Origin: Acidimicrobiales bacterium
Lineage (GTDB): Bacteria; Actinomycetota; Acidimicrobiia; Acidimicrobiales; Bin134
Reading direction: 5' to 3'
Length of the DNA stretch: 64,000 bases
Assembly: GCA_965115985.1 (NCBI GenBank)
Contig: OZ220474.1
Coordinates: forward strand, 3,172,504-3,236,503
Shown here one piece after another: positions 2 through 46,595 of this stretch. Below the pieces are notes generated by a model. That model was not told the origin of the DNA. It saw only the letters and a list, made by a program, of their open reading frames with translations, and did not search any database. A program made the translations under genes and the position numbers. The stretch's first letter is position 1. Each line of letters starts with the position of its first letter.

Positions 2-490
2 GATCGCCACCGGTTGCGGATCCGGTATTTCAGCTATGGCCGGGACCAGGAATCCGATCGCGTCATCCACCCGTTCCGGGTGTTCTCGGAGATGGGCAAC
101 TGGTACGTGCAAGGACATTGCCGACTGGCCGGAGGAACCCGGGTGTTCCGGCTCGACCGGATCAAGTCGCTGGATGTTCTGGACGAACGCTTCGACCCTC
201 CCGAGGACATGAGCACGCCCTCGGTCTTCGAGGCCCGCGACACCGATCCCCGGGTGGTTCTTAGGCTGGCCCCCGAGGCTTCGTGGGTTGTCGAGCAGTA
301 CCCGCTCGACCAGCAGATGCACCTGGACGGTGGGGGGATCGAGGTCACCCTACCGGTGAGCCGAGTCGGCCGGTTGGAACGGCTGCTCCTCCAGCTCGGC
401 CCCCAGGTGGAACTGAGACACGCCGACCCGCCGGTGGCCGCCGACCAGGCTCGGCTGGCCGCCCGACGGGTTCTGACCCGGTACCGGTAG
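2..490 (+). CDS. WYL-domain transcriptional regulator, C-terminal part (PafB/PafC-like); 5' end outside window
   Basis: Frame is open from the window edge. RIRYFSYGRDQESDRVIHPFRVFSEMGNWYVQGHCRLAGGTRVFRLDRI looks like a WYL domain. TAG stop at 488-490. Confidence 0.7.
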   Translation, partial: DRHRLRIRYFSYGRDQESDRVIHPFRVFSEMGNWYVQGHCRLAGGTRVFRLDRIKSLDVLDERFDPPEDMSTPSVFEARDTDPRVVLRLAPEASWVVEQYPLDQQMHLDGGGIEVTLPVSRVGRLERLLLQLGPQVELRHADPPVAADQARLAARRVLTRYR

Positions 491-588
491 GGGTGGGCCC
501 GAACATGGACAACGAGTCGAAGTCCCGACCCCGGGGGGTAGGGGTGGGCCCGAACATGGACAACGAGTCGAAGTCCCGACCCCGGGCG
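487..588. repeat. 2 x 51-bp tandem duplication at the WYL-gene/lepB junction
   Basis: Copies at 487-537 and 538-588 are nearly identical. Copy 1 holds the TAG stop of the upstream gene. The lepB ATG at 589 abuts copy 2. In-frame ATGs at 505 and 556 lie inside the copies. Confidence 0.95.
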
Positions 589-1212
589 ATGGCCGGGACG
601 GTAGGGGTTTCGGGATACCCGGAAGAGGCGGGGGCCGACCCGGAGATCCAGTCGAAGAAGTCGGCGCTGCGGAGCGTTCTGGAGTGGGTGGTGGTGCTGG
701 GCGGGGCCCTGGTGCTGGCGCTGATTCTGCGGACGGTGCTCTTTCAGGCCTACTACATCCGCTTCACTTCGATGGAACCCACCCTGAGCAACGGTGATCG
801 GGTTTTGGTCAACAAGCTGAGCTACGACCTCCACGACGTCAACCGCGGCGATCTGGTGGTGTTCGAGCGGCCCGGAGGAGTCGGCGGCCCCCAGAACGAC
901 GACCTCATCAAACGGGTCATCGCCCTCCCCGGCGAGGTCATCACCTTCGTTGAGGGGGACGTGTACATCGACGATCAGCGGCTTTACGAGCCCTATTTGG
1001 AGTCGTCGGGCATCACCACCGGTGGAACACCGTCCGGCTGCGCGGCGATCAGGAACGGCGGTTGCCTGGTCGGGGCCGGGGACGTATTCGTGATGGGCGA
1101 CAACCGGACCAATTCCACCGACAGCCGGGCGTTCGGCCCCGTCCCCAAACACCTGATCGTGGGCCATGCCTTCCTGCGCATCTGGCCGGTGACCGAATTC
1201 GGCCGCCTCTGA
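589..1212 (+). CDS. lepB: Signal peptidase I
   Basis: SMEPTL Ser box, GDLVVF, KRVIALPGE Lys box, GDNRTNSTDSR and an N-terminal TM helix. The start is ambiguous (589, 556 or 505) because of the junction repeat. Confidence 0.85.
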   Translation: MAGTVGVSGYPEEAGADPEIQSKKSALRSVLEWVVVLGGALVLALILRTVLFQAYYIRFTSMEPTLSNGDRVLVNKLSYDLHDVNRGDLVVFERPGGVGGPQNDDLIKRVIALPGEVITFVEGDVYIDDQRLYEPYLESSGITTGGTPSGCAAIRNGGCLVGAGDVFVMGDNRTNSTDSRAFGPVPKHLIVGHAFLRIWPVTEFGRL

Positions 1213-1286
1213 GGAGCGATCCGTCCAGCCACGACGGAAAGAAACCCGTCCGGCCGAGGGGCGGCCCGGCCAATTACTTAATCTGA

Positions 1287-2213
1287 CTAATTGTGGTGGT
1301 GATCGTGGCCGTGGCCGTGATCGTCGAAGACGTGGATGACCCCATCGGAATGATCGGAGTGCTCGCCGTGGAACAGGCAGTCCTCGGCATCGCCGTGGGC
1401 CATCCTCAGACCGAAGGCCTCCTGCATGTTCTTGTTGCTCAGCACTTCGGAGGGCTTGCCCGCGGCCACCAGGCGGTTGGCCAGCAGCAGGACTTGATCG
1501 CACAGCTCGGCCTCGTCCATGTGGTGGGTGGAGATCACCACCATGCGCCCCCGGCGGCGTTCCTCGTCGATGATGCTCAGGATCGTTTCCTGGCTGGGCA
1601 TGTCCAGCCCGGTGATGGGCTCGTCCATCAGCAGTATCCGGGTGTCCCGGGCCAGAGCCTGAGCCACCAGCACCCGTTGGCGCTGGCCGCCGGACAGCTC
1701 CCCGAATTGACGGTCCTCCAGGTCGGCCACCTCCAAACGCTCGGCCGCCTCCTTGATGGACTCCCGATCCTCTCCCCTCAGCCGTTTCACCAGGCCCCGG
1801 TGGCTGTAGCGGGACATGCGCAACACGTTGGCCACGGTCACCGGCATCCACGTCCGGTTGCCGTGGTACTGGGCCACCAGTGCCACCGAATTCCTTGCCG
1901 GCATCGGGCTGATCGTGCCCGCGGACGGCCGGGTCAAACCGCTCAGCAGCCGGAGCAGGGTGGTCTTGCCCGAGCCGTTGGATCCGATGAGCGCCGTGCA
2001 GGTGCCGTACTCCAAGCAACAGTCCAAACCGGACAGGACAATGTCCCCGGTTCCGTACTTGGCCTCCACGTTCTTGAAAACGATCGTGTCCGAACCATCG
2101 ACTCCACTGCCACTCTCGACTCCGGTGGAGCCACCGCTCGTCCTGGTGGAGCTGCCACTTTCTGCCCCGGTCGAGCTGCTGCTCGTCTCGACTCCGGTGG
2201 AGCTACTGCTCAT
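1287..2213 (-). CDS. ABC transporter ATP-binding protein (metal-uptake type) with His-rich C-terminal tail
   Basis: Walker A GSNGSGKTT, signature LSGGQRQR, Walker B ILLMDEP. Tail is HVFDDHGHGHDHHHN. N-terminus is Ser/Thr/Gly-rich. Confidence 0.8.
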   Translation of the reverse strand: MSSSSTGVETSSSSTGAESGSSTRTSGGSTGVESGSGVDGSDTIVFKNVEAKYGTGDIVLSGLDCCLEYGTCTALIGSNGSGKTTLLRLLSGLTRPSAGTISPMPARNSVALVAQYHGNRTWMPVTVANVLRMSRYSHRGLVKRLRGEDRESIKEAAERLEVADLEDRQFGELSGGQRQRVLVAQALARDTRILLMDEPITGLDMPSQETILSIIDEERRRGRMVVISTHHMDEAELCDQVLLLANRLVAAGKPSEVLSNKNMQEAFGLRMAHGDAEDCLFHGEHSDHSDGVIHVFDDHGHGHDHHHN

Positions 2214-2955: not shown

Positions 2956-2974
2956 TCGCGGCAGCTCCGGCTAT

Positions 2975-3106: not shown

Positions 3107-3118
3107 TAACCTTCGGAT

Positions 3119-3526
3119 GTGGGGAACCTCGGATGGGCGGAGATCGCGGTGATCGCGGTGCTGGCCCTGGTGGTGCTGGGGCCGGACAAGTTGCCCGGAG
3201 CAGCCCGACAGATAGGGCAGGCCGTCCGACTGATGCGCAAGATCAGCACCGGTTTCCAGCAGGAGCTGCAAAACGCCCTGGACGAACCGGTGGAGGCCGA
3301 GGCTCGCCGTCGGGGAGAACTGGCGGTGAAGCAGGAGCAGGAAGAGGCCAAGCCGAAGCCTGAAGAGGCCGAGCGGGAACAGGAAGAGGGCGAGCAAGAG
3401 CAGGCCAAGCCGGAGCCTGAAGAGGCCGAGCGGGAACAGGCCAAGCCGGAGCCTGAAGAGGCCGAGCAGGAACAGGAAGAGGGCGAGAGGGAAGATCAAG
3501 GGGGCGAGCGGGCCCCTGAACGGTGA
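3119..3526 (+). CDS. tatB: Twin-arginine translocase TatA/TatB family protein (TatB-like) with acidic repeat tail
   Basis: The N-terminus MGNLGWAEIAVIAVLALVVLGPDKLPGAARQIGQAVRLMRK resembles the TatB TM plus amphipathic helix. GTG start. The tail has repeated AKPEPEEAEREQ units. The gene lies directly upstream of tatC. Confidence 0.7.
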   Translation: MGNLGWAEIAVIAVLALVVLGPDKLPGAARQIGQAVRLMRKISTGFQQELQNALDEPVEAEARRRGELAVKQEQEEAKPKPEEAEREQEEGEQEQAKPEPEEAEREQAKPEPEEAEQEQEEGEREDQGGERAPER

Positions 3527-4477: not shown

Positions 4478-5089
4478 ATGCCGATTCGACGGGGTGAGGA
4501 TTGGGGTGAGCCCGGAGGTCTGGGACCCGATGGCGTGTTGGTGGGCAGCGATTCCGAGGCCCGAGCCCTTGTCGAGGAGGCCCGGCGGGACAACCGGCCG
4601 GTGCCCGAACTGGGTCTGCTGGGAGGCGATCTGTGCCGCACGTTGGGGGGTCGGGGCAACCCCGATGCCCTACGGTCGCCCGAGGCCTGGAGATTCGCGG
4701 TGGACGTCGGTGCCGTTCTACTGGACGGCAGGCTGTTCTGGTTCTGTGCCCACCTGGTCGCCCGGCGAAGAGGTTGGGGCGGGGAGGTGCTGGTGGCCAT
4801 GAACGCGGCGTGGCGGGGAAGCTGGAATCTGGGGCCTCGGGCTCACCCCGGTGACGGAGTGCTGGACGTCTATCACGGCCGCCTCTCGATCGGGGACCGG
4901 CTGCGAGCCCGACAACGGCTGGGCACCGGGGATCATCTGCCCCATCCCGGTATCCGCCACCATCGCGTCGGTGCCTTCCAAGCAGAGCTGGAGAAGCCGT
5001 TGATGGTGGAGTTGGACGGACGGCCGGTTCGGCGAACCTCGAACCTGTCGATCCGGGTGGAGCCGGCCGCGTTGGTCGTGGTGGTCTGA
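4478..5089 (+). CDS. Hypothetical protein
   Basis: ORF with GC3-rich codon usage consistent with coding. There is only a weak resemblance (AHPGDGVLDV) to lipid-kinase accessory domains. The function is not supported. Confidence 0.4.
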   Translation: MPIRRGEDWGEPGGLGPDGVLVGSDSEARALVEEARRDNRPVPELGLLGGDLCRTLGGRGNPDALRSPEAWRFAVDVGAVLLDGRLFWFCAHLVARRRGWGGEVLVAMNAAWRGSWNLGPRAHPGDGVLDVYHGRLSIGDRLRARQRLGTGDHLPHPGIRHHRVGAFQAELEKPLMVELDGRPVRRTSNLSIRVEPAALVVVV

Positions 5090-5219
5090 AGAGCAGGCCG
5101 TGCTCATCGTGGTGGTCTGAGGAGCTGGCCGCGTTGGTCGTGGTGGTCTGAGGAAGCGGCCGCGTTGGTCGTGGTGGTCTGAGGACGCGGCCGCGCTCAC
5201 CGTGGTGGTGAGAATCAGT
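5065..5219. repeat. 5 x 31-bp tandem repeat spanning the stop of CDS 4478-5089 and the GTG of the next CDS
   Basis: Copies start at 5065, 5096, 5127, 5158 and 5189. Each carries GTGGTGGTCTGA-like ends. The first TGA (5087-5089) terminates the upstream gene. GTG 5218 is at the end of copy 5. Confidence 0.95.
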
Positions 5220-6462: not shown

Positions 6463-6517
6463 GCACCGGAGCCGAGAAATTGCTGCCCACCGGTGAGCCG
6501 ACGTCGACCGCGATCTC

Positions 6518-6625
6518 GGGCGGCGATTTCCGATGAGCCAGTACGCATCGAGGGCGGAACGGATGGTTGGTGACAGGCCCACATCGATAGCGACCGTGGG
6601 CGGCGATTTCCGATGAGCCAGTACG
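6518..6625. repeat. Duplicated 28-bp start region (period 80 bp) upstream of the ThyX-like gene
   Basis: gggcggcgatttccgatgagccagtacg occurs at 6518-6545 and 6598-6625. The first copy opens a 27-codon ORF (6533-6616) that stops in ATGA on the real start at 6613. Confidence 0.9.
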
Positions 6626-8229
6626 TCGCCGAGCAGTTCACCACCGAGGAGGAGGACGTACTACGGCGGTACTTCACCAACCTGGATCAGCCGGTCTTCG
6701 CCCTGGTGAACCTGCCGGAGGTGGTCAAGGGGGCCCTCTTCGCCCGCTACAGCCGCTCGCCCAAATCGCTGCGCAGGCTGTTTCTGGACGAGTTCGTCGG
6801 GGAGTTGGACATAAGCGGCGACCAGACCATCGACGCCACCGTGGGCCTGAGGAGAGCCGAGGAGCTCTACGACCGGGTGTTCTTCGAGTACGGGGACGAC
6901 TCGGTGGCCCAACTGGGCGGGGTCCACCTGGCCTGCGAGCAGGCCTCCAACATCTTGACCAAGGTGCTGGAGTGGGGTCGGCTCATGTCGTATCTGGAGC
7001 AGTCCACCCGCTACATCGACTACCTGACCCGGATCGGGGGCCGCTATCGCTACTACCGCGATCCCCAGGTGGGCGAGTCGCCCCTGTCGGGACGCTACGT
7101 GAGCGACATGGACCGGATGTTCGAGGCCTACGGCCTGCTCCTGCCGACCATGACCGAGTTCTACCGCGACAACACCCCCAAGGACTCCGGGTCCTCCGAC
7201 TTCGCCTACCACCGGGCCGTCCGGGCCAAGGCGCTGGATACCGTCCGGGGGGTGCTTCCGGCGGCGACGGTGTCGAACGTGGGCATCTACGGCACCGGCC
7301 AGTCCTACGAGCTGCTGCTTCTGCGCATGCGGTCCCACGGGCTGCCGGAGGTCCGGGCGTACGCCGATCTGATGCTGACCGAGCTCCGCAAGGTGATCCC
7401 CTCCTTTTTGAAGCGGGTGGACCTGGACGACCGGGGAGTGGCCTGGAGCCACTATCTGGGCGACGTCCGGGAAACCATGGAGCTGGTGGCCGACCACCTG
7501 CTGCTCCCCGACCTGCCGGTCGATGACGCCCCGACGGTTCGCCTGGTGGACTTCGACCCGGAGGCCGAGGTCAAGATGGTGGCCTCCATGCTCTATCCCT
7601 ACACCCATTTGCCCGAGGAGCAGTTGGAGCGCGAGGTAAGGGCCATGGGCTCCGAGGACCGGCTGTCGGTGGTACGAGCCTATGTCGGGTCCCGGACCAA
7701 CCGCCGCCACAAGCCGGGTCGGGCCCTGGAGCGGCCCTTCTACCGGTTCGACGTTTTGGCCGACTACGGGGCCTTCCGGGATCTCCAGCGCCATCGCATG
7801 CTCACGCTGGAGTGGCAGAGGCTCACCCCCGGCCATGGGTTCACCCGGCCCGAGGCGGTGGACGCCGCGGGCTGCGGCCCGGTGTTCGACGAGGTCATGG
7901 AGCGGTCGGAGACCCTGTACCACCTGTTGAACCGGGACTTTTCCGAACAGGCCGCCTACGCGGTGTGCCTGGCCTACAAGGTGCGGTTCTCCATGAGCCT
8001 GAACGCCCGATCGGCCATGCATCTCATAGAACTGCGCACCACCCCCCAGGGTCACTCCGCCTACCGCAGGATCGGACAGGAGATGTGGAGGCTCATCCGG
8101 GACGAGGCCGGTCACCCGGCCATCGCGGAGATGATGAAGTTCGTCGATCTCAGCGAGGAGCCTCCCCTGGGCCGGCTGGACACCGAAAACCGCATCGAAC
8201 AAAAACGCCGAGCCGGCCGACCGGCGTGA
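6613..8229 (+). CDS. ThyX-like (thymidylate synthase complementing protein family) large two-domain protein
   Basis: ARYSRS near the N-terminus and a later LQRHRMLT recall ThyX RHR/S motifs. At 538 aa it is about twice a canonical ThyX. This is a family-level call only. Confidence 0.5.
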   Translation: MSQYVAEQFTTEEEDVLRRYFTNLDQPVFALVNLPEVVKGALFARYSRSPKSLRRLFLDEFVGELDISGDQTIDATVGLRRAEELYDRVFFEYGDDSVAQLGGVHLACEQASNILTKVLEWGRLMSYLEQSTRYIDYLTRIGGRYRYYRDPQVGESPLSGRYVSDMDRMFEAYGLLLPTMTEFYRDNTPKDSGSSDFAYHRAVRAKALDTVRGVLPAATVSNVGIYGTGQSYELLLLRMRSHGLPEVRAYADLMLTELRKVIPSFLKRVDLDDRGVAWSHYLGDVRETMELVADHLLLPDLPVDDAPTVRLVDFDPEAEVKMVASMLYPYTHLPEEQLEREVRAMGSEDRLSVVRAYVGSRTNRRHKPGRALERPFYRFDVLADYGAFRDLQRHRMLTLEWQRLTPGHGFTRPEAVDAAGCGPVFDEVMERSETLYHLLNRDFSEQAAYAVCLAYKVRFSMSLNARSAMHLIELRTTPQGHSAYRRIGQEMWRLIRDEAGHPAIAEMMKFVDLSEEPPLGRLDTENRIEQKRRAGRPA

Positions 8230-8296
8230 GTTCTCGAGGGCGTTGATCCATGCCGAGCCGGCCGACCGGCGTGAGTTCTTGAGGGCATTGATTTAT
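8207..8296. repeat. 2 x 45-bp tandem duplication at the 3' end of the ThyX-like gene
   Basis: Copies at 8207-8251 and 8252-8296. The TGA stop (8227-8229) is in copy 1 and is repeated at 8272-8274. Confidence 0.95.
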
Positions 8297-8369: not shown

Positions 8370-8864
8370 ATGACTAACCCTGACGAACACAAGGAAGCCC
8401 CGGTGGAGGATTTCGACGAGGAAGATCTGGACGGTGATCTGGACGACGACCTCGACGGTGATCTGGATGGCGACCTCGACGACGATCTGGACGGTGATCT
8501 GGACGACGACCTCGACGACGACGAGGAGGACGATGACGAGGAAGCCGGCAACGGGTCGAACCGCGGCGGTTCGACCATGTCCGAGGATGATAACGAGGAC
8601 AAGGAGGACATAGACCCCGACAATGTGGAGGACGATCTCGACACCATCCTGAAGGATCGTCTGGCCGCGGGCGACGACGAGGACGAGGACGAGGACACCC
8701 CCGAGCCCCCGCCCGAGGCCGCGGGCCAGGTGGCCCCCAAGCGCGACAACGAATGGACCTGCGAGGGGTGTTTCCTGATCGTCAGCTCCAGCCAGTTCGG
8801 GCCTCGCGACAACCCCCGATGCCCATCGGGGGAGGAGCCCTGCCCATCGCTGGATCGGCTGTGA
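8370..8864 (+). CDS. DUF4193-like acidic protein with C-terminal Cys cluster
   Basis: Asp/Glu-rich body and C-terminal WTCEGCFLIV...RCPSGEEPC. The ATG at 8370 is preceded by gaggagg. A TTG at 8349 would give a longer ORF. Confidence 0.65.
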   Translation: MTNPDEHKEAPVEDFDEEDLDGDLDDDLDGDLDGDLDDDLDGDLDDDLDDDEEDDDEEAGNGSNRGGSTMSEDDNEDKEDIDPDNVEDDLDTILKDRLAAGDDEDEDEDTPEPPPEAAGQVAPKRDNEWTCEGCFLIVSSSQFGPRDNPRCPSGEEPCPSLDRL

Positions 8865-8934
8865 GTTCGACCGGCGACCCCGATTTGGATCGGGATCGGC
8901 TGTGAGTTCGACCGGCGACCCCGATTCGGATCGG
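8853..8934. repeat. 2 x 41-bp tandem duplication of a GTGA stop/start junction
   Basis: Copies start at 8853 and 8894. The TGA of the DUF4193 gene (8862-8864) is in copy 1. GTG 8902 of the next ORF is at the same position in copy 2. Confidence 0.95.
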
Positions 8935-9150
8935 GAGTCGTTGGACAAGCTGTTGGATGCGCTGGTGTTCGCGCCGCTGGGGCTTTTGGCCGGGCCGGCT
9001 CGATCGAACGAGGATCTGGCGGCTCGGGGCCGGCGACACCTGGAAGCCGCCAAGCTGCTGGGGCGCATGGCTCTGGATCACCCCCCGACCTCGCCCACCA
9101 CCGGCTCCAACTCCGAGCACCCACCCGCCCCGGACCCGGGCTCGAGCTGA
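8902..9150 (+). CDS. Small hypothetical protein
   Basis: 82-codon ORF bounded by junction repeats on both sides. No recognisable domain. Confidence 0.3.
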   Translation: MSSTGDPDSDRESLDKLLDALVFAPLGLLAGPARSNEDLAARGRRHLEAAKLLGRMALDHPPTSPTTGSNSEHPPAPDPGSS

Positions 9151-9281
9151 CCGGTGGGTTCGGCATCGACCTTGAGATCGTGTCCGGTAGCCCCCGACCC
9201 GGACCCGGGTTGACCGGTGGCAGTGCTTGTAGACCCTCATGCCCCCGGTAGCCCTCGACCCGGACCCGGGTTGACCGGTGG
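9128..9281. repeat. Three copies of a junction motif (cccggacccggg..TGACCGGTGG; periods 63 and 61 bp)
   Basis: TGACCGGTGG occurs at 9148-9157, 9211-9220 and 9272-9281. The first TGA ends ORF 8902-9150. The GTG in the last copy (9278) starts the GNAT gene. Confidence 0.9.
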
Positions 9282-9778
9282 GTGAGCGGCCGGTCACCGA
9301 AGCGGCCAGAACGGCCCGACCCGATGAGGTGGGTCTGGTGGCCGACTTGGCCCGCGAAGCTCGACACGAGGCTTTGCAGTACCGGGGAGGAGAGCGCTGG
9401 TTGGCCACCGAAGCAGCTCCCGAACCGCTGGAGGATCGTTTCCGAGAGTCGTTGGCCGATCCCGATGCCGTCCTGGTGGTGGGGGTGTGGGAGGAGTCGG
9501 TGGTCGGGTACGGGTGGGCCCGACGGCGGATACGCCTGGATGGATCGCCGGTGGGTCGGATCGAGGAGCTGTTCGTCGCCCCCGATGCCCGGTCGGTGGG
9601 GGTGGGGGAGTCGCTGTTCGAGGCGCTGTTGTCGTGGGCCGGCGACCAGAAACTGGTGGCCATGGACGCATTCGTGCTGCCCGGCCACCGCGCCGCCAAG
9701 AACTTCTTCGAGACCTTCCGCATGACCGCCCACGGGTTGATAATGCACACCCGGTTGGACCAGGACCGGACCGCATGA
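9278..9778 (+). CDS. GNAT family N-acetyltransferase
   Basis: IEELFVAPDARSVGVGESLFEALL is an acetyl-CoA binding-type motif. Typical size of 166 aa. Confidence 0.8.
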   Translation: MGERPVTEAARTARPDEVGLVADLAREARHEALQYRGGERWLATEAAPEPLEDRFRESLADPDAVLVVGVWEESVVGYGWARRRIRLDGSPVGRIEELFVAPDARSVGVGESLFEALLSWAGDQKLVAMDAFVLPGHRAAKNFFETFRMTAHGLIMHTRLDQDRTA

Positions 9779-9842
9779 GCGGACTAACCGGTCGCCGATG
9801 GGGACATACCCGGTTGGACCAGGACCGGACCGCATGAGCGGA
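9749..9842. repeat. Duplicated 35-bp ATGA junction (period 59 bp) between GNAT and NUDIX genes
   Basis: acccggttggaccaggaccggaccgcATGAgcgga occurs at 9749-9783 and 9808-9842. TGA 9776-9778 stops GNAT. ATG 9834 starts NUDIX. Confidence 0.95.
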
Positions 9843-10232
9843 CCGGAGCTGTGCGTGGGGGCGGTGGTGGTGCGGGAGAGTTCCATCCTGCTCATACGCC
9901 GGGGCCATCCGCCGGGGGAGGGGCGGTGGTCGGTGCCCGGCGGCAGGGTGCAACGGGGGGAGAGCCTGACCGATGCCGTCCGCCGGGAGCTACGGGAGGA
10001 AACCGGTTTGGACGGGGAGGTCGGCGAAGCCCTCGGCTGGACCGAGCTCATAGGTCGCCGCCGTCACTTCGTGGTGGTGGACTACCGGGTCACCGTGGCT
10101 CCCGATGCCCGGGCGACGGCTGGATCCGATGCCTCCGGTGCGGCTTGGGTCGCCTTCGACGATCTCGGTAACTGGGACTTGGTGGACGGCCTTCAGCAGT
10201 TCTTGGCCGACCACGAGGTCATTCCCCGGTAG
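9834..10232 (+). CDS. NUDIX hydrolase
   Basis: Nudix box GGRVQRGESLTDAVRRELREETGL. A longer ORF from 9798 exists, but ATG 9834 is the duplicated junction start. Confidence 0.85.
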   Translation: MSGPELCVGAVVVRESSILLIRRGHPPGEGRWSVPGGRVQRGESLTDAVRRELREETGLDGEVGEALGWTELIGRRRHFVVVDYRVTVAPDARATAGSDASGAAWVAFDDLGNWDLVDGLQQFLADHEVIPR

Positions 10233-10284
10233 CCGCCGGATTATTCCCCAGTAGCCACGAGGTCATTCCCCGGTAGCCGCCGGA
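10211..10284. repeat. Duplicated 30-bp convergent stop/stop junction (period 44 bp)
   Basis: ccacgaggtcattccccggtagccgccgga occurs at 10211-10240 and 10255-10284. The NUDIX TAG (10230-10232) is in copy 1. The stop of the minus-strand gene (tca 10263-10265) is in copy 2. Confidence 0.95.
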
Positions 10285-11651
10285 GTTCTGGTGCCCCGGC
10301 GCTTGCGCTTGGGGGCGGGGGAGGGCTCCACCCCGAACAGCGACGCGATATGGGGAACCCGGTTGGCCAGTTTCTTCACCTCGGTCAGCAGTTCCTGGTC
10401 GGGTTTTTCCGGTATGCCCAGGGGCTTCACCGTCCAGCGAACCGGCGAGAACGCCACCGCTCCCAGAACGGTGATCCACCGCTTGGTCGGAGTGTCGCCG
10501 GCCAACTCGGCACTGGCCGCCTCGGTCAACCGGGTGACTATGTCCTGGGGCAGGGGCACCCCCGCTTTTGGGGGCCGGGAGCTGAGCCTCAGGGCCCGGA
10601 CCATGCGACCGTCGGCCAAAGTGGCCGCCACCTCGGCCAGCCATTCGGAATGCTCCCGATCCACCCGCTCGGTGAGCTTGGCTCGCAATTCCTCGGCCAT
10701 GGCCTTGGTCTCGTCGTCGTCGGCCCCGGTTTCGGCCGCCACCACCACCGAGCGAAGGTCGCGCAAGTCGATCTCGCCCGCTCCTGCCAATGCCGCCTCC
10801 GCCCGATCCCGCCACTCCGCGGCCCGCATCCGGGGAAGCAACTTGCGAGCCACCGCCAAGAAATCCGCGGATTTGTCGGGGGTGGGTGGTTCGTCCTTGG
10901 GTGGTTTCTTGTCGGCTTCGGTCGCGGTCTTGTCGGGGGTGGGTGGTTCGTCCTTGGGTGGTTTCTTGTCGGCTTCGGTCGCGGTCTTGTCGGGGGTGGG
11001 TGGTTCGTCCTTGGGTGGTTTCTTGGCTGCCTCGGCCGCGTCGCGGGATTTTTTGCGTTGGTCCCGAAGGGCTTGCTCCACCGAGCCGATGCCGTCCCTG
11101 ACCATCTTCTCGGCGACGGGCTTCTGGTCGTCGGGCAGGCTGTCGATCACCGCTTGACGATGGACCCGGTTGGGGCGCAGGCGTCGGGGTTGGGGACGAT
11201 CATCCTCACGCCGGGGCTTGGATCGCGAGCGATCCTTTCCGTCGCCGCCATCCCTACGGCCCCGATGATCCCGGTTGTCCCGACGGTCGTCGCGGTTGCG
11301 GCGGTCGTTGCGGTCGCGGGTGTCCCTGTCCTTGCGCCCGGACACCAACCGAGTGGTGACCAGCGCCTGCTCCCGGCCCGATCCCAGTATCTCCAACGTC
11401 TCGGGCATGGGGCGCTTCTGCTTGGCTGCGAACACCTCGATGATCTCGATGCCGTCCATGTGGAACTCGGCCTCGACGGTCACCTCGTCGCCCACCTCCA
11501 CCGGGAAGGTGAGCAGGTCGCCCGGGAGGTCGCCCTTGGGTTGGCGAGCCCCGGCGGCCCGCCATGTCCAAGAACCGTCGGAACGCCGGCTGGTCAGCTC
11601 AATCTCAATCCTTCGAGACACCGGCGGCCACGCTACCGCACCGATGCCCAA
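10263..11651 (-). CDS. Hypothetical protein with Arg/Asp-rich segment and 19-aa tandem repeats
   Basis: 462-codon ORF containing an RDRNDRRNRDDRRDNRDHRGRRD stretch and KKPPKDEPPTPDKTATEAD x 2.7. No family was recognised. Confidence 0.5.
   Translation of the reverse strand: MGIGAVAWPPVSRRIEIELTSRRSDGSWTWRAAGARQPKGDLPGDLLTFPVEVGDEVTVEAEFHMDGIEIIEVFAAKQKRPMPETLEILGSGREQALVTTRLVSGRKDRDTRDRNDRRNRDDRRDNRDHRGRRDGGDGKDRSRSKPRREDDRPQPRRLRPNRVHRQAVIDSLPDDQKPVAEKMVRDGIGSVEQALRDQRKKSRDAAEAAKKPPKDEPPTPDKTATEADKKPPKDEPPTPDKTATEADKKPPKDEPPTPDKSADFLAVARKLLPRMRAAEWRDRAEAALAGAGEIDLRDLRSVVVAAETGADDDETKAMAEELRAKLTERVDREHSEWLAEVAATLADGRMVRALRLSSRPPKAGVPLPQDIVTRLTEAASAELAGDTPTKRWITVLGAVAFSPVRWTVKPLGIPEKPDQELLTEVKKLANRVPHIASLFGVEPSPAPKRKRRGTRTPAATGE
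10872..11024. repeat. In-frame 57-bp tandem repeat x 2.7 inside CDS 10263-11651
   Basis: Near-identical DNA units encode KKPPKDEPPTPDKTATEAD. The period is divisible by 3. Confidence 0.95.
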
Positions 11652-12495: not shown

Positions 12496-12592
12496 CCTCT
12501 GCGTGACCCGGCTCAGCGCAACTCGGCTCAGCACGATCCGGCTCCCCTCTGCGTGACCCGGCTCAGCGCAAATCGGCTCAGCATGATCCGGG
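12496..12592. repeat. 2 x 50-bp tandem duplication at a stop/start junction inside the Tad operon
   Basis: Copies start at 12496 and 12546. The stop of CDS 12578-12979 (tca 12578-12580) is in copy 2 and is repeated at 12528-12530. The next gene starts at 12487. Confidence 0.95.
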
Positions 12593-12979
12593 GACGCTCA
12601 GGGCTACGGTGCCGGCCACCGAGTGGCAGGCGGTGGCGGTGGTGTTGAGCACGGATCCCCGAGTGTCCAGCGGGGCGGTGGTCACCGCGACGATCAGGTT
12701 GCAGGCATCGGCGTGGACCTCGACGGCCACCGGCTGCACCGCCAGATGCTCGATTCGGCTCAGGGCGGCCTGGGAGGCAGCGGCCACTGCCTCGGGCGGG
12801 GGGTCGGACCGGCACTGCCAACCGGCCGCGGAGGCGGCCTGGGCCGCAGCCGCGGCCGCCGACTGGGCCGCGGCCCCGGTGGACAGCTTGGTGACATGGC
12901 TCACGTACAAACCGGTGATCAGAGCCAGAAGGAGCATCAGCAGAACCGAGGTGCGCAACACCACCAGAGAGTCGGCCAT
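12578..12979 (-). CDS. TadE/TadG-like pseudopilin candidate
   Basis: N-terminal hydrophobic helix VLLMLLLALITGLYV. Small secreted-type protein in the Tad operon. Confidence 0.45.
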   Translation of the reverse strand: MADSLVVLRTSVLLMLLLALITGLYVSHVTKLSTGAAAQSAAAAAAQAASAAGWQCRSDPPPEAVAAASQAALSRIEHLAVQPVAVEVHADACNLIVAVTTAPLDTRGSVLNTTATACHSVAGTVALSVPGSC

Positions 12980-19454: not shown

Positions 19455-19466
19455 GACCCGCCTGCC

Positions 19467-19564: not shown

Positions 19565-19584
19565 CGACGGCCACGTCCGTAGGG

Positions 19585-21168: not shown

Positions 21169-21180
21169 GCTCTCGGACGG

Positions 21181-37587: not shown

Positions 37588-37733
37588 TTCCCTCTCGCCT
37601 TCGGCCTCCGCCCTCCCGGCTGTCCGATGATGGGAGCACGAGCTTCCCTCTCGCCTTCGGCCTCCGCCCTCCCGGCTGTCCGATGATGGGAGCACGAGCT
37701 TCCCCCTCGCCTTCGGCCTCCGCCCCGTGGGGT
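37588..37733. repeat. 2.6 x 56-bp tandem repeat in the divergent aceA/glcB intergenic region
   Basis: Copies start at 37588, 37644 and 37700 and are near-identical. Confidence 0.95.
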
Positions 37734-39997: not shown

Positions 39998-40009
39998 GCT
40001 AGGGCAAGC

Positions 40010-40198
40010 CCCAGGGCGTCCTCGGTCCATTCGATCTCGGGGACATGCTGATCGGCCAGCGTGGCCGCCGCCCGACCCATCAGCCCAGGGCGTCCTCGGT
40101 CCATTCGATCTCGGGGACATGCTGATCGGCCAGCGTGGCCGCCGCCCGACCCATCAGCCCAGGGCGTCCTCGGTCCATTCGATCTCGGGGACATGCTG
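40010..40198. repeat. 2.5 x 74-bp tandem repeat between glcB and the sulfotransferase gene
   Basis: Copies start at 40010, 40084 and 40158. Each contains ggacATGCTG. The last, partial copy provides ATG 40193. Confidence 0.95.
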
Positions 40199-41509
40199 GG
40201 CCATGGCGACATGGTACGGACGACATGGTACGGGGGTAGCCTGCGGGGCGTGAGCAACCGTCCGGCCCCCATTCGCATAGATGACCTGGCAAACCCGGTG
40301 CTTGCCCCGGAGATAGCACGGATGATGGAGCAGACCGCTCCGATGGCCGAAAAGATCGAGTTGAGCCCCGAGGCCGTGCTGGCCGAGGCCACCGCCCGGA
40401 CCGGGCTCGGTGATTTCGGACCCGACGGATTCCGGGCCCCGCTCGAGGTGTTGTGCCGGGCCCTGGACGTCGAGGCCGACCTCTCCCCCATGGGTCGGGT
40501 GAGCAGCTTCAACCAACTGAGCGGTTTCGCGGCCAACCGTTTGCGGATCGAGCAGTACGTCAAGGACCATCCCGACGCTCTCGAGGTGCCCATAAGCCGA
40601 CCCATCGTGATCGCCGGGCTGCCCCGCACCGGCACCACCCATCTGCACAACCTCGTCTCCGCCGACCCCGGGTTGCGCTCGCTGCCCTGGTGGGAGGCCC
40701 TGGAGCCGGTTCCTCCTCCCGAGGAGGCCGGAACCACCGAAGGTCGCATCGAACGGGCCCGGGGCGGGCTGGTGATCCACAACACGGCCCTGCCCCACTA
40801 CGACCGCATGCACGAGATGACCTGGGATCACGTCCACGAGGAGATCCACCTGCTGGGCATCGATTTCTCCACCATGTTGTTCGACTGCACGGCGGTGATG
40901 CCCTCGTGGCGGGCGTACTACCAGCAGCACGACCAGACCCCCCACTACCAGTACCTCAAGCGAATTCTCCAGGTGCTCACCCACCAGCGCCCGCCCCGGG
41001 AGCGCTGGGTGCTCAAGTCCCCCCAGCACCTCGAACAGATAGGGCCGCTGATGAACGTCCTCGGCGACGCCACCGTGGTGTTCACCCACCGCGATCCAGT
41101 GTCGATCACCGCCTCGTTCGCCACCATGATCTGTTACTCGGCCCGCATGAGCGCCACCCATCCGGTGGACGTCCACGGCATCGGCCAATGGTGGGCCCGA
41201 CTGATCGAGGACATGCTCCGGGCCTGCACCGCCGACCGGAACCTGGTGCCCCCGGAACAGTCCATGGACGTGTTGTTCCACGAGTTCATGGCCGACGACG
41301 TGGCCACGGTGGAGCGCATCTACGAGCTGGCCGACCGATCCTTCACCCCCCGGGTGAGGGCGGCCATGGACGGGTACATGGCGGACCATCCCCGGGGCAG
41401 GCACGGCCGGGTGATCTACGACCTGGCCGACTTCGGCATCGATCCCGCCGAACGCCGCCAATCGCTCGGCTTCTACACCGACCGGTTCGCGGTGGAGTTG
41501 GAGTCCTGA
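40193..41509 (+). CDS. Sulfotransferase family protein
   Basis: PAPS-binding 5'-PSB loop IAGLPRTGTTHLHNLV and the TGLGDFG region. The start is uncertain (ATG 40193 in the last repeat copy, or ATG 40322). Confidence 0.75.
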   Translation: MLGHGDMVRTTWYGGSLRGVSNRPAPIRIDDLANPVLAPEIARMMEQTAPMAEKIELSPEAVLAEATARTGLGDFGPDGFRAPLEVLCRALDVEADLSPMGRVSSFNQLSGFAANRLRIEQYVKDHPDALEVPISRPIVIAGLPRTGTTHLHNLVSADPGLRSLPWWEALEPVPPPEEAGTTEGRIERARGGLVIHNTALPHYDRMHEMTWDHVHEEIHLLGIDFSTMLFDCTAVMPSWRAYYQQHDQTPHYQYLKRILQVLTHQRPPRERWVLKSPQHLEQIGPLMNVLGDATVVFTHRDPVSITASFATMICYSARMSATHPVDVHGIGQWWARLIEDMLRACTADRNLVPPEQSMDVLFHEFMADDVATVERIYELADRSFTPRVRAAMDGYMADHPRGRHGRVIYDLADFGIDPAERRQSLGFYTDRFAVELES

Positions 41510-41679
41510 CCGCGCCGAGCAAGCGGTGGAGTTGGAGTCCTGACCGCGCCGGGCAAGCGGTGGAGTTGGAGTCCTGACCGCGCCGGGCAAGCGGTGGAGT
41601 TGGAGTCCTGACCGCGCCGGGCAAGCGGTGGTGCTGGAGTCCTGACCGCGCCGGGCAAGCGGTGGTGCTGGAGTCCTAG
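41491..41679. repeat. 5.5 x 34-bp tandem repeat between convergent genes
   Basis: Copies start at 41491, 41525, 41559, 41593, 41627 and 41661. The sulfotransferase TGA (41507-41509) is in copy 1. The stop of the minus-strand thioesterase gene (41680-41682) abuts the last partial copy. Confidence 0.97.
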
Positions 41680-42402: not shown

Positions 42403-42558
42403 GCCGAGGGCTCGGGGACTCGATGAAACTGGGCTCAGGAACCGAGGACTCAAGGAACTGGGGACTCGAGGGGCCGAGGGCTCGGGGACTCGATGAAACT
42501 GGGCTCAGGAACCGAGGACTCAAGGAACTGGGGACTCGAGGGGCCGAGGGCTCGGGGG
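42403..42558. repeat. 2.2 x 70-bp tandem repeat between the SDR stop and the thioesterase start
   Basis: Copies start at 42403, 42473 and 42543, with additional diverged similarity at 42364-42402. Confidence 0.95.
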
Positions 42559-43485: not shown

Positions 43486-43637
43486 CCCGCAGCCGGCCTA
43501 CGAAGCCACTCGGGGCCTTACCGGCCGGTCGCTCATTCGTACAGTGCCCCGCAACCGGCCTACGAGGCCACTCGGGGCCTTACCGGCCGGTCGCTCATTC
43601 GTACAGTGCCCCGCAGCCGGCCTACGAAGCCACCCCC
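43486..43637. repeat. 2.5 x 62-bp tandem repeat carrying the DUF2236-gene stop
   Basis: Copies start at 43486, 43548 and 43610. The stop (cta 43622-43624) is in the copy nearest the gene and is repeated in the others. Confidence 0.95.
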
Positions 43638-44521: not shown

Positions 44522-44538
44522 GACCGAACCACCCTACC

Positions 44539-44656
44539 GTCACCCTCGAACCCCCCGGAATCGCGAATGAACGCCCCCACCCCCCGGTCGTCCCTGCGGT
44601 CGCCGTCACCCTCGAACCCCCCGGAATCGCGAATGAACGCCCCCACCCCCCGGTCG
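44539..44656. repeat. 1.8 x 66-bp tandem repeat in the divergent DUF2236/SMP-30 intergenic region
   Basis: Copies start at 44539 and 44605. Each contains an ATG (44566 and 44633). ATG 44633 is in frame with the SMP-30 gene. Confidence 0.95.
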
Positions 44657-44671
44657 CTATTGTCCTCCGGC

Positions 44672-45523: not shown

Positions 45524-45600
45524 GAGGGCCGGGCCGCCCCCAGCCGGAGACCCCCGGCAAACAAGGGTGGGCAGAAGTATCGAGCAACGGCAGGAGTCAA

Positions 45601-45701
45601 AGGAGAGGAATATGAGATTCTCGGAAAAGGTGGCCCGCAAGGACGTCCTGGAGAACGGCCAACTCGGGGAGGCATCATGAGATTCTCGGGGAAGGTGGCC
45701 C
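45601..45701. repeat. Duplicated RBS+start region (period 65 bp) of the SDR gene
   Basis: ATGAGATTCTCGG(A/G)(A/G)AAGGTGGCCC occurs at 45612 and 45677, each preceded by a ggag-type RBS. The first copy opens a 22-codon ORF (45612-45680) ending in ATGA on the real start. Confidence 0.9.
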
Positions 45702-46435
45702 TGGTCACCGGGGCCGGGTCGGGAATCGGCCAGGCCACTGCGGCCCGGCTGGTGGGCGAGGGAGCGGTCGTGGTGGGCAGCGACGTCAGTTCGTCCGGCC
45801 TGGAGGAGACCGCGGGGATGATCGATGGGATGGTCGATGGAGCCGGGGGTTTCCATCCGGTGGTGTCCGACGTGCGCTCCCGGGAGGCCTGCCATGAGTT
45901 GGTGGCCTCGACCGTGGCCGAGCACGGGCAACTGGACGTGCTGTGCAACATCGCCGGGTTGGCCCGGAGCCATCGAGTGGGCGATGTGGATCAAGGCACC
46001 TGGGATCTGATCATGGAGGTGAACGTGGGCGGGGTGTTCTGGATGTCGCAGGCCGCGCTCCCCCACCTGGAGGCCTCCGGGGGGTGCATCGTGAACATGG
46101 CCTCCAACGCCGGGCAGATCGGGCAGGCCTACACCGTGCCCTACTGCGCCAGCAAGGGAGCGGTGATCTTGATGACCAAGGCCATGGCCATGGAGACCAT
46201 CCGCACCTCGGTGAGGATCAACGCCGTCGCTCCGGGTGGGGTGGACACCAACCTGGTGACGTCCTTCGGGTTTCCCGACGACCCGGACATGGAGCTGATG
46301 GGGCGATACATGGGCTTTCGAGGAATGGCCCAGGCCGACGACATCGCCTCGGCGGTGGCCTACCTGGCCTCCCCCGAGGCCCACCGCATCCACGGAGCGG
46401 TCCTGAACGTCGATGCCGGCTTGACCGCCGGATGA
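45677..46435 (+). CDS. SDR-family oxidoreductase
   Basis: VTGAGSGIG Rossmann motif and YCASKGAV catalytic motif. Confidence 0.85.
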   Translation: MRFSGKVALVTGAGSGIGQATAARLVGEGAVVVGSDVSSSGLEETAGMIDGMVDGAGGFHPVVSDVRSREACHELVASTVAEHGQLDVLCNIAGLARSHRVGDVDQGTWDLIMEVNVGGVFWMSQAALPHLEASGGCIVNMASNAGQIGQAYTVPYCASKGAVILMTKAMAMETIRTSVRINAVAPGGVDTNLVTSFGFPDDPDMELMGRYMGFRGMAQADDIASAVAYLASPEAHRIHGAVLNVDAGLTAG

Positions 46436-46595
46436 GCTGGGGTCCTGAACGTCGATGCCGGCTTGACCGCCGGATGAGCTGGGGTCCTGAACGTCGATGC
46501 CGGCTTGACCGCCGGATGAGCTGGGATCCTGCCGGTCGCCGGGTGTTGGTCACCGGATGAGCTGGGATCCCGCCGGTCGCCGGGTGCTGGTCACC
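46400..46595. repeat. Nested tandem duplications (3 x 42 bp, then 2 x 41 bp) around an ATGA junction between two SDR genes
   Basis: ggATGAgctggg occurs at 46430, 46472, 46514 and 46555. The first TGA (46433-46435) stops SDR 1. The last ATG (46557) starts SDR 2. Confidence 0.97.

Follow-up and report, generated by a model that had tools for sequence, protein, structure and literature searches.

Among described systems that resemble the arrays analysed here, the MIRU-VNTR loci consist of tandem units of 40-100 nt at co-directional intercistronic junctions of a high-GC actinobacterium. Each unit carries a small ORF, the ends of which overlap the flanking stop and start codons at -4 spacing, so that translation can pass on, and copy number differs among genomes. 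The units form one dispersed consensus family, which has ~40-50 loci in a genome of 4.4 Mb and is presumed to have arisen by insertion (PMC3184786, PMC12548453). Coupling between the MIRU ORFs and the downstream gene at the -4 spacing is stated in one report (PMC12548453, citing Supply 1997). Among the 12 classical MIRU loci, seven have units of 53 nt, two of 77 nt, two of 54 nt and one of 51 nt, none of which is of 3n+1 length (PMC3558156); 53 and 77 are 3n+2, and 51 and 54 are 3n. Other locus-specific VNTRs and promoter repeats, in M. tuberculosis and elsewhere, are local minisatellites that change copy number by slippage and show an in-frame bias within genes; a genome has tens of such loci, and most discussion of them concerns promoter or intragenic elements (PMC12817950). 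At ATGA and TAATG junctions, a terminating ribosome reinitiates at the adjacent start, and short 'delivery' uORFs can pass ribosomes on to the gene that follows (PMC12548453). Finally, in one lineage, the marine Beggiatoaceae, stop-containing TAACTGA direct repeats are abundant between genes, with a single 7-nt motif at all loci (PMC4679880).

The stretch of DNA analysed here (64 kb, hereinafter the window) is part of the chromosome of a 'Candidatus Poriferisocius'-like sponge symbiont of the Acidimicrobiia, with a genome of 3.37 Mb. In contrast to the MIRU and Beggiatoaceae repeats, each of its arrays has a unit of its own (22-80 nt), copied from the local gene ends. The preliminary description had likened the arrays to MIRUs in concept, with locus-specific units and a far higher density, and the comparison agrees: there are ~4 boundary arrays per 10 kb, roughly 40 times the density of MIRU loci. 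About half of the gene-gene junctions in a 47-kb segment (19 of the 43 counted) bear a locally made duplication of 30-80 bp, as opposed to the tens of VNTR loci in a whole genome. The short ORFs of the window may, by analogy with delivery uORFs, hand ribosomes to the downstream gene; unlike those, they are successive duplicates of the junction itself, with as many as five following one another.

Tandem arrays in the GC-rich core

Tandem arrays with units of at least 20 nt were identified in the GC-rich core (positions 1-47,400) by combining Tandem Repeats Finder, a repeat search and a scan for identity at spacing p, and their positions were tabulated against gene ends along with the period modulo 3. 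Among the 30 arrays detected, 20 lie on or between gene ends, compared to 7.6 +/- 2.3 under random placement (none of 20,000 trials reached 20). Thus, the clustering at gene boundaries claimed in the preliminary description holds, and so does the abundance, although the count is slightly lower (20 arrays, spread over 19 of 43 junctions, instead of at least 22 boundaries), and two of the reported periods, 65 and 80, were not recovered as tandem periods, 80 being only the distance between two occurrences of a 23-nt motif (42361 and 42441). The unit lengths fall within a narrow band of 22-80 nt, and the copies are 95-100% identical. The boundary arrays are as follows (unit, copy number and period class, then content).

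486-586, plus strand: 51 nt, 2.0 copies, 100% identical, 3n; upstream stop TAG at 488-490; signal peptidase (LepB) start GTG 493 or ATG 505, again at ATG 556; an N-terminal in-frame duplication of LepB
5059-5213, plus strand: 31 nt, 5 copies, 3n+1; each copy ends in TGA; upstream stop in copy 1 (5087-5089), downstream start absent from the unit
8207-8292, plus strand: 45 nt, 1.9 copies; ThyX stop TGA 8227-8229 in copy 1; unit made of the stop and 3' spacer
8852-8936, plus strand: 41 nt, 2.1 copies, 3n+2; GTGA in each copy; a 14-codon mini-ORF joins the upstream stop to start 8902 of the downstream gene
9121-9281, plus strand: 37-nt repeat, 3 copies spaced by 63 and 61 nt, with 25-nt fillers unlike each other; TGA-N3-GTG in each repeat; two mini-ORFs (19 and 22 codons) span the distance from stop 9148 to start 9278
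9746-9844, plus strand: 59-nt period, 1.6 copies, 3n+2; ATGA at 9775 and 9834; a mini-ORF joins stop 9776-9778 to start 9834
10219-10284, convergent junction: 22 nt, 3 copies (equivalent to 44 nt); both stops in the unit, TAG of the plus-strand gene and TCA (that is, TGA) of the minus-strand gene
12496-12591, minus strand: 50 nt, 1.9 copies, 3n+2; mini-ORFs of 18 and 16 codons form a chain between stop 12578 and start 12487
13939-14246, minus strand: 71 nt, 4 copies, 3n+2; four ATGA; the unit is the final 71 nt of the upstream gene; three 24-codon mini-ORFs from stop 14176 to start 13966
16715-16871, minus strand: 50 nt, 3.1 copies, 3n+2; three TAATG; two 16-codon mini-ORFs from stop 16854 to the CpaF start at 16754
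17502-17624, minus strand: 41 nt, 3 copies, 3n+2; three ATGGTGA; two 14-codon mini-ORFs from stop 17607 to the start of a SAF-domain gene
21150-21314, plus strand: 38 nt, 4.3 copies, 3n+2; ATGA chain of 13-codon mini-ORFs up to the C5-methyltransferase start at 21279
37588-37725, divergent spacer of isocitrate lyase (minus) and malate synthase G (plus): 56 nt, 2.5 copies
40010-40198, plus strand: 74 nt, 2.6 copies, 100% identical; spacer between the malate synthase stop at 39997 and the sulfotransferase start at 40193
41489-41677, convergent junction: 34 nt, 5.6 copies, 3n+1; sulfotransferase stop 41507-41509 in copy 1
42403-42557, minus strand: 70 nt, 2.2 copies, 100% identical, 3n+1; spacer of two minus-strand genes
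43486-43633, minus strand: 62 nt, 2.4 copies; upstream stop TAG 43622-43624 in copy 1, the remainder 3' spacer
44536-44657, divergent spacer: 66-nt period, 1.8 copies
46399-46597, plus strand: compound array of 42 nt, 3.2 copies (46399-46531), and 41 nt, 2.1 copies (46505-46597); 125 nt added (3n+2); ATGA 46432 opens a 42-codon mini-ORF that extends to ATGA 46557, where the downstream gene truly starts

Most of the units duplicate a stop/start region, as originally described for all of them, but about a quarter of the arrays consist of spacer units containing neither codon, among them those in the divergent spacers (37588, 44536) and in the spacers at 40010 and 42403.

Within genes, the period is a multiple of 3 in all 10 arrays (57, 30, 36, 57, 24, 60, 45, 198, 66 and 264), in line with the earlier reading of the coding-region repeats. 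They include the following.

3329-3493, plus strand: 57/36/21 nt, in-frame, in the Glu-rich tail of a TatA/B-like gene
8424-8522: 36 nt
10866-11040: 57 nt
12825-12879: 24 nt
15032-15175, minus strand: 60 nt, 2.4 copies, in-frame C-terminal insertion in the tail of a CpaF-like ATPase (24 nt, that is, 144-120, in the relative L001)
18310-18488: 45 nt
18484-19067: 198 nt
19465-19565: 66 nt

Reading frame and a proposed mini-ORF relay

The boundary arrays had been described as free of frame bias, which turned out to be incorrect for units that contain the downstream start. In the window and its relatives combined, 19 such arrays have 3n+2 periods, six have 3n and one has 3n+1 (chi-square p = 5e-5; the independent events were curated by hand, and some of those in relatives might share ancestry). 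The lone 3n+1 case, a 19-nt unit in L002, relays through dimers, and none of the 3n+1 arrays of the window (5059, 10219, 41489 and 42403) has a start in the unit. To our knowledge, this 3n+2 rule for start-containing units has not been stated before.

In an ATGA, GTGA or TAATG junction, the start lies in frame -1 relative to the stop, and where the unit includes the downstream start, the period would set the fate of ribosomes that initiate in an internal copy. With a 3n+2 period, every extra copy becomes a mini-ORF of 11-24 codons ending exactly on the next stop/start overlap, which would preserve coupling; a 3n period gives an in-frame N-terminal extension; and with a 3n+1 period, which is almost never seen, ribosomes would pass the true start in the wrong frame. 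Each extra copy of a 3n+2 unit with an ATGA or TAATG overlap thus reads as a mini-ORF from one start to the next stop, and such chains are explicit in nine arrays of the window and 12 arrays of relatives. The placement of the upstream stop in the first copy and the downstream start in the last one, noticed at the outset, was confirmed codon by codon in nine co-directional arrays. Judging from the sequences, the outcome would be a termination-reinitiation relay like the one known from mycobacterial MIRUs, with the mini-ORFs translated and the flanking genes coupled.

Given the bias of the start-containing arrays toward 3n+2, functional coupling across these boundaries is probably kept rather than lost. 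The preliminary description had considered, as an alternative, a process that uncouples overlapping genes. Uncoupling is a physical consequence and not a separate process: at 10219, the genes ancestrally overlapped by 14 nt in convergent orientation and now have a 30-nt spacer between them, and at 46432, a 125-nt spacer has replaced an ATGA overlap.

Junctions in related genomes

Whether the orthologous junctions are single-copy in close relatives, a question raised with the original observation, is answered in the affirmative by synteny comparison with ~30 relatives: such junctions are found in up to 16 of them, and the size gaps correspond to whole units. The junction at 17502-17624 measures exactly 41 nt in all 14 anchored relatives (123 nt here); that at 13939-14246 measures 95 nt (308-3x71) in 10 of 11 (308 nt here); and those at 16715-16871, 8852-8936 and 46399-46597 measure 57 nt (a single copy in L001) versus 157, 44 versus 85, and 74 versus 199 nt, the last being the single-copy state of L160 and L161, in which the genes overlap by 4 nt (ATGA). 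The junction at 8207-8292 is 41 nt (86-45) in about half of the anchored relatives and 52-129 nt in the others, with one negative estimate. The relatives have 24-61 nt at 486-586, 22-31 nt at 9121-9281, 16 nt at 12496-12591, 22 nt at 10219-10284 (some with 37-nt duplications of their own) and, in most cases, 10-23 nt at 5059-5213, where three genomes, L001 among them, have 53-74 nt. Toward the end of the core, a 26-nt end segment of 37588-37725 is present once in L160, and 51 unrelated nt occupy the place of 43486-43633 in the same genome. The array at 40010-40198 sits in a gene-deletion scar, with one or two genes found there in L160 and L161; the sulfotransferase start at 40193 matches that of an identical 438-aa database protein.

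At some of these junctions, relatives have duplications that arose independently and differ in period. These occur at 8852 (50 nt in L001 versus 41 nt here), 13939 (35 nt in L025 versus 71), 41489 (a 67-nt array of three copies in L160, made of its own C-terminal end, versus 34) and 12496 (insertions of 63 nt in L001 and 30 nt in L006). Upstream of ThyX, the units are 35, 38, 19 and 26 nt in different genomes.

Insertion of a MIRU- or MITE-like mobile family at start codons, followed by amplification, would account for the MIRU-like design, that is, tandem intercistronic units of 40-100 nt with small ORFs overlapping the stop and start (PMC3184786, PMC12548453), and for frame classes identical to those of the MIRU loci. 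Nevertheless, this origin is barely credible. As first proposed, the units share no common sequence: only chance 8-10-mers are shared between them, no unit recurs elsewhere in the window, no common boundary or terminal motif was found among the arrays, and the units have no match to Rfam or other families. Moreover, each unit is homologous to the single-copy junction sequence of relatives, local C-terminal and N-terminal coding ends included. A mobile repeat family is therefore contradicted by the lack of shared sequence, the local homology and the lack of a terminal motif.

An artefact of assembly or consensus calling in long-read metagenomes, to which the lower number of arrays in short-read MAGs of the clade might point, is very improbable. 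An artefact would not follow frame rules (3n in genes, 3n+2 across starts) and is hard to reconcile with nested substitutions that split copies 1-2 from copies 3-4 at 13939 and copy 1 from copies 2-3 at 17502. In addition, independent assemblies of different species share a unit with varying copy number at one junction, and HiFi reads greatly exceed the 100-300 nt of the arrays in length. Local origin of the units, absence of shared sequence and independent duplications together argue against both a mobile family and an artefact.

Probable generation and selection of the arrays

The arrays are very likely locus-specific minisatellites that were made in place and filtered by selection, and not copies of a mobile element. 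Frequent short tandem duplication under a selective filter, with a separate unit at each locus, was the reading initially favoured, and the single-copy orthologues, the local units and the 3n periods within genes all support it. In the first step, a segment of 20-80 nt straddling or abutting a gene end would be duplicated in tandem, most likely through replication slippage or template switching between short direct repeats. Microhomology is found at 16715 (7 nt; the direct repeat GTTGAGG is present at both ends, 50 nt apart, also in the single copy of L001), at 12213 of L001 (14 nt) and at 21150 (ATCCGC), but none is visible in several other arrays, such as 17502 and 486. Long fractional copies are common as well, and the repeats of 9121-9281 are separated by unlike fillers. 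Simple slippage does not predict fractional copies or fillers; fill-in with end-joining, or templated insertion, may play a part.

That the same filter acts on the products of a different generator altogether, namely repair of staggered breaks or nicks (by fill-in and end joining or templated insertion) in place of slippage, is possible but rather unlikely. The zero microhomology at the ends of 17502 and 486, the unrelated 25-nt fillers at 9121-9281 and the confinement of unit lengths to 22-80 nt are compatible with such repair, whereas the microhomology in other arrays and the lack of a recurrent boundary sequence hinting at a site-specific nuclease are not in its favour.

Under the preferred scheme of duplication in place, a two-copy array then gains and loses whole units as a VNTR and is homogenised, as comparison of genomes shows. 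The 38-nt unit at the start of a PafA/Dop-like gene is present in 1, 2, 3, 4 or 6 copies across 15 genomes; its internal copies show 100% identity inside each genome but have diverged between genomes, and the old first copies keep the pattern of ATG, 11 codons, stop and ATG. In the third step, as the statistics show, selection retains only 3n periods within genes, and at junctions leaves both genes intact, the upstream one ending at the stop of the first copy and the downstream one starting in the last.

The arrays could also have been retained because they are useful, as regulatory devices that set the expression ratio between neighbouring genes (a copy-number rheostat on translational coupling or promoters) or as sources of leader peptides, in which case their density would be an adaptation. 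We regard this as quite unlikely, despite several observations that fit it. The array at the PafA/Dop junction is genus-wide, and its diverged first copies preserve start, length and stop; a 62-nt insert common to L006 and L009 has remained an intact ATG-to-TGA mini-ORF despite ~50% divergence; translation matters, as the 3n+2 rule shows; and changes in the copy number of promoter tandem repeats in M. tuberculosis are phase-variable and reported to affect adaptation (PMC12817950). However, purging of harmful arrays alone predicts the frame rule equally well, and about half of the junctions are affected irrespective of gene function, convergent junctions and the deletion scar included. Furthermore, nearly all arrays of the window are missing from the closest relative, and many copies are 98-100% identical, which indicates that the arrays are young and turn over fast.

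Arrays with out-of-frame periods reach 2.95 per 10 kb in the window core and 1.86 in the closest genome, compared to 0.19 in other long-read congeners, 0.09 in other Acidimicrobiia and 0.06 in diverse bacteria, so that the window exceeds its congeners ~15-fold and the background 30-50-fold; these values derive from 64 kb of the window genome and 21-43 kb per relative and are an extrapolation when applied genome-wide. Some of the compared short-read assemblies may have collapsed arrays, but the long-read congeners are likewise array-poor. The high density therefore characterises this genome and the one closest to it, and not the genus as a whole. A standing density so far above that of congeners points to duplication at a raised rate, or to weaker purging, in this lineage.

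Repeat arrays and the gene boundaries of the core

The GC-rich core of the window (positions 1-47,400; 67% GC) carries ordinary chromosomal genes, flanked or interrupted by segments of lower GC content. A megablast comparison of positions 1-25,000 with phage and plasmid collections gave no relevant match, and the region therefore does not correspond to any known mobile element. The tRNA scan of the window was empty, and Rfam yielded no match at the gathering threshold anywhere in it. The principal features are as follows.

Core: signal peptidase, TatC, double-domain ThyX and M20 peptidase
Core: Tad-pilus block including a CpaF-like ATPase
Core: isocitrate lyase, malate synthase G, sulfotransferase and several short-chain dehydrogenases
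22.2-24.3 kb: lower-GC island carrying an NTase-HEPN gene
47.4-49.8 kb: lower-GC island
52,595-63,523 (+): adhesin-like gene of 3,642 aa in a lower-GC region

A ThyX query retrieved 79 loci. The closest (82-90% amino acid identity) come from ‘Candidatus Poriferisocius’ and Acidimicrobiales MAGs with complete chromosomes assembled from long reads; these form a group of sponge symbionts, and they keep the gene order of the window across the core. The ThyX gene itself (6613-8229, +) encodes 538 aa with two Thy1 matches, i.e., a tandem double domain, and this long form is conserved throughout Acidimicrobiia, in sponge symbionts and free-living marine lineages alike, at identities as low as 57%.

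Tandem arrays with units of at least 20 nt were sought in the core with TRF, a repeat search and a p-spaced identity scan, and the three methods agreed on 30 arrays (hereinafter named by their start positions), with copies that are 95-100% identical to each other within an array. Twenty of the 30 touch a gene end or are intergenic; they have units of 22-74 nt in 2-5.6 copies and occupy 19 of the 43 gene-to-gene junctions, 15 of the arrays being located at co-directional junctions. When these segments are placed at random, 7.6 ± 2.3 fall at boundaries, and none of 20,000 trials reached 20. In all 10 intragenic arrays the period is divisible by three. The intragenic and boundary assignments come from a hand-curated gene list, an automatic classifier that relied on spanning ORFs and GC3 having misassigned several arrays in this high-GC DNA. 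The preliminary description thus holds with respect to both the enrichment at boundaries and the periods of the intragenic repeats; its count of at least 22 boundary repeats was slightly too high, and its periods were reproduced except for those of 65 and 80 nt. The junction arrays are a real, non-random and lineage-specific feature.

The units are unrelated to one another, as originally proposed: all-against-all comparison of 21 units found no similarity beyond chance 8-10-mers (E ≥ 0.02) except between the overlapping arrays 46399 and 46505, and copies of the units were not found elsewhere in the window. Neither the array boundaries nor the enriched k-mers revealed a common motif or a nuclease-like site, the only enriched words being TGAGC, which derives from the (A/G)TGAGC junctions, and a mild excess of CCGG. 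A CRISPR array was considered for 9121-9281 and rejected: the locus has no more than three repeats, of which the first is 76% identical, the stop and start of the genes on either side lie within them, and the relatives have a single repeat. No cas domains were detected among the window genes scanned.

Local origin of the units and changes in copy number

Each array was anchored in up to 16 relatives, the compared loci of which are denoted L001, L002 and so on. The orthologous junctions are one unit long in these genomes, and the unit is local coding sequence; in array 13939, for example, it corresponds to the upstream gene's final 71 nt, as far as the ATGA. These single-copy junctions bear out the earlier proposal that each locus makes its own unit.

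Lengths of junction segments in the window and in relatives
17502-17624: 123 nt (3 × 41) in the window; exactly 41 nt in 14 of 14 relatives with the anchor
13939-14246: 308 nt in the window; 95 nt (three 71-nt units fewer) in 10 of 11 relatives, 130 nt in L025
16715-16871: 157 nt in the window; 57 nt in L001
8852-8936: 85 nt in the window; 44 nt in relatives
46399-46597: 199 nt in the window; 74 nt in relatives, where two dehydrogenase genes overlap by ATGA

Several of the same junctions bear different duplications in the relatives, namely one of 50 nt at 8852 (L001), one of 35 nt at 13939 (L025) and 67 nt in three copies at 41489 (L160), while live arrays with units of 35, 38, 19 and 26 nt are present just upstream of ThyX in L001, L009, L002 and L013, respectively. 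These observations rule out a mobile repeat family and indicate recurrent, independent local events that affect the same junctions because duplication is tolerated there. The 150-nt spacer upstream of ThyX in the window (6463-6612) contains degenerate GTGAGCC/ATGAGCC segments and a repeated GGGCGGCGATTTCC; it looks like a decayed array, and old arrays may end up as ordinary intergenic sequence. A deletion scar (39998-40260) surrounds the 74-nt array at 40010: malate synthase G is separated from the sulfotransferase by one gene in L160 (226 aa; 9082-9762) and by two in L161 (241 aa plus a dehydrogenase; 8481-9975), whereas in the window about 45 nt of the 5′ end of the lost gene are left as part of the 74-nt unit.

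Like VNTRs, the arrays consist of head-to-tail copies of units of at least 10 nt at single loci, and related genomes differ in them by whole units (three copies vs. one in 14 relatives at 17502, four vs. one at 13939). The widest range was observed just outside the window, at the start of a gene that resembles PafA/Dop, of the pupylation system, in its N-terminal motif MDRRIFGIENEYG (L001:773-883), where the copy number of a 38-nt unit is 1, 2, 3, 4 or 6 across 15 genomes. The internal copies at this junction are 100% identical within a genome and diverged between genomes; the two-copy genomes have a drifted, older first copy, and five of six keep the succession ATG, eleven codons, stop, two bases, ATG. 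In every internal copy the duplication has changed the Tyr codon of the conserved EYG to a stop. Substitutions are nested in the window arrays (copies 1-2 vs. 3-4 at 13939, copy 1 vs. 2-3 at 17502), which points to stepwise growth. Judged from these genome comparisons, the arrays behave as VNTRs over long times.

The most likely generator of the duplications is slippage. Short direct repeats at the unit ends fit slipped-strand mispairing: a GTYGAGG repeat 50 nt apart at the 16715 junction, also found in the single copy of L001, a 14-nt repeat at L001:12213 and ATCCGC at 21150. Across the arrays as a whole, microhomology is present at some and absent from others. Unit-end repeats were not found at 17502 and 486, long fractional copies are common, and the three repeats of 9121-9281 are separated by unrelated fillers, all of which would fit either divergence of constrained end copies or generation of the duplications by end-joining or templated insertion.

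Frame of the start-containing units and the comparison with MIRUs

The preliminary description held that boundary arrays show no frame bias; this is refuted for units that contain a start codon, which favour periods of 3n+2. At ATGA, GTGA and TAATG junctions the downstream start is one base ‘behind’ the frame of the stop. In an array whose unit contains a start and has a 3n+2 period, a ribosome initiating in one copy would reach the stop of the next copy, which itself overlaps a start. Codon-by-codon tracing detected such chains of mini-ORFs, each extending from the start of one copy to the stop of the next, in 9 arrays of the window and 12 of relatives, with offsets of -1, -4 or +2.

Mini-ORF chains in the arrays of the window
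8852: one mini-ORF of 14 codons
9121: mini-ORFs of 19 and 22 codons
9746: mini-ORF chain
12496: mini-ORFs of 18 and 16 codons
13939: three mini-ORFs of 24 codons
16715: two mini-ORFs of 16 codons
17502: two mini-ORFs of 14 codons
21150: mini-ORFs of 13 codons
46399-46597: one mini-ORF of 42 codons between two ATGA overlaps; 125 nt (3n+2) added by two units of 42 nt and one of 41 nt

Among the independent start-containing events, 19 are 3n+2, six are 3n and one is 3n+1 (chi-square p = 5e-5, for a hand-curated list in which some events of relatives may not be fully independent), and the window alone gives 8:2:0 in the same order (p = 0.006). The 3n events are in-frame N-terminal extensions, e.g., of 17 residues in LepB at 486-586. 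The sole 3n+1 event, a 19-nt unit in L002, relays via unit pairs, and the 3n+1 arrays of the window (31, 22, 34 and 70 nt) have no start within the unit, two being located at convergent junctions, one containing a stop only and one lying in a spacer. On sequence grounds, the 3n+2 rule implies that translational coupling would be preserved by selection. Local tandem duplication combined with selection, including this rule, is the best explanation of the arrays. The rule appears to have gone unremarked: the literature yielded neither a description of such arrays in sponge symbionts or Acidimicrobiia nor a stated frame rule for junction repeats.

In review accounts of the work of Supply et al., MIRUs are 40-100-nt intercistronic repeats with small ORFs that overlap the flanking genes and a -4 spacing suited to coupling (PMC3184786, PMC12548453); the units of the twelve classical loci are 53 (seven), 77 (two), 54 (two) and 51 nt long, 3n+1 being absent (PMC3558156). 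The arrays described here share the tandem arrangement in intercistronic regions of operons, with units of 22-74 nt compared to 40-100 nt, and, in the 9 window and 12 relatives' arrays, the small ORF that overlaps the flanking stop and start. However, MIRU units have a consensus across loci and those of the window do not; the filled and empty MIRU sites suggest transposition-like insertion with short target repeats, of which there is no sign here, since the single-copy sites of relatives already hold one full unit, the local coding end, and the array boundaries share no motif; and the host of MIRUs is Mycobacterium, whereas the genomes closest to the window are those of ‘Candidatus Poriferisocius’ and other Acidimicrobiales MAGs. 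Membership among MIRUs thus fails on the defining points, and the conceptual likeness drawn in the preliminary description, with units particular to each locus, stands at the level of architecture. The right label would seem to be locus-specific junction minisatellites that work like MIRUs. Compared with known junction VNTRs and MIRU-like relays, their density and clean selective signature are notable.

The 3n+2 rule offers a sequence-only signature of selection on termination-reinitiation coupling at many ordinary operon junctions, and it suggests a simple origin for MIRU-like intercistronic elements. In practical terms, short-read MAGs have such arrays broken or collapsed, and the annotation of start codons is misled by them.

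Density across lineages and other features of the window

Density was expressed as the number of arrays per 10 kb with periods of 19-130 nt not divisible by three; loci from a malate synthase G metagenome scan, which recovered distant relatives only (≤63% identity), served just as repeat-density background.

Array density (per 10 kb)
Window core: 2.95
Two loci of the closest genome: 1.86
Other long-read congeners (367 kb): 0.19
Short-read MAGs of the clade: 0.13
Other Acidimicrobiia (748 kb): 0.09
Diverse bacteria (1.03 Mb): 0.06 (0.09 for GC ≥ 62%)

The window and the closest genome, which are about 82% identical at the nucleotide level, have no arrays in common, so that each lineage accumulated its own after the split; many arrays are 98-100% identical and are accordingly young. 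This distribution suggests that duplications either arise at a heritably high rate or are weakly purged in a small clade consisting of the window genome and its closest relative. Tentatively, and with less than even confidence, we propose that in these two genomes a heritable hyper-duplication regime continually makes junction DNA (probably at more than 1,000 loci genome-wide, by extrapolation) that is selected into MIRU-like 3n+2 relays. Under such a regime, the clade would be a natural experiment on the birth of spacers, leader peptides and perhaps also new small genes from overlapping junctions, would show how translational coupling constrains indels and could account for the origin of MIRU-type elements. 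If the pattern is genome-wide, this bacterium owes its intergenic DNA mainly to local tandem duplication. The roughly 15-fold contrast between repeat-rich and repeat-poor congeners provides a comparative handle on the control of short-duplication rates in bacteria; OZ241836 is a repeat-rich chromosome, and OZ242341 and NZ_OZ244791 are repeat-poor ones.

Two high-GC Acidimicrobiales long-read MAGs with ThyX 66-68% identical (L046, L069) have several arrays per 21 kb, with periods of 28, 32 and 34 nt as well as in-frame ones, unlike free-living low-GC relatives, in which no such short tandem arrays were seen; the tendency may recur in further high-GC symbiont lineages.

The island at 22.2-24.3 kb (53% GC) contains no junction arrays. 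Together with its surroundings (21279-25622) it looks like an acquired island of the defence or toxin-antitoxin type:

21279-22400: C5 cytosine DNA methyltransferase, at the island edge
23051-24229: nucleotidyltransferase-HEPN protein, inside the island
24361-25230: orfB of an IS3-family transposase (orfA upstream), adjoining the island just beyond its edge

Two giant genes rich in FN3 domains are present in the window. The one at 28866-34979 (-) encodes 2,037 aa with 11 FN3 matches and has in-frame repeats near its 5′ end, of 12 nt (GTGGGAGTGGCA × 12) and 6/18 nt; a comparable FN3 giant occupies another position in L160, beside the dehydrogenase pair. The ORF at 52595-63523, with a GC content of about 55-60%, combines 12 FN3 domains with PKD, Calx-beta, He_PIG and Big_9 and includes a big internal duplication, with identical CCCACCCCAACA repeats at 60143 and 62750, spaced by 2,607 nt. 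Its product looks like a giant adhesin that was possibly acquired and is possibly relevant to life in sponges.
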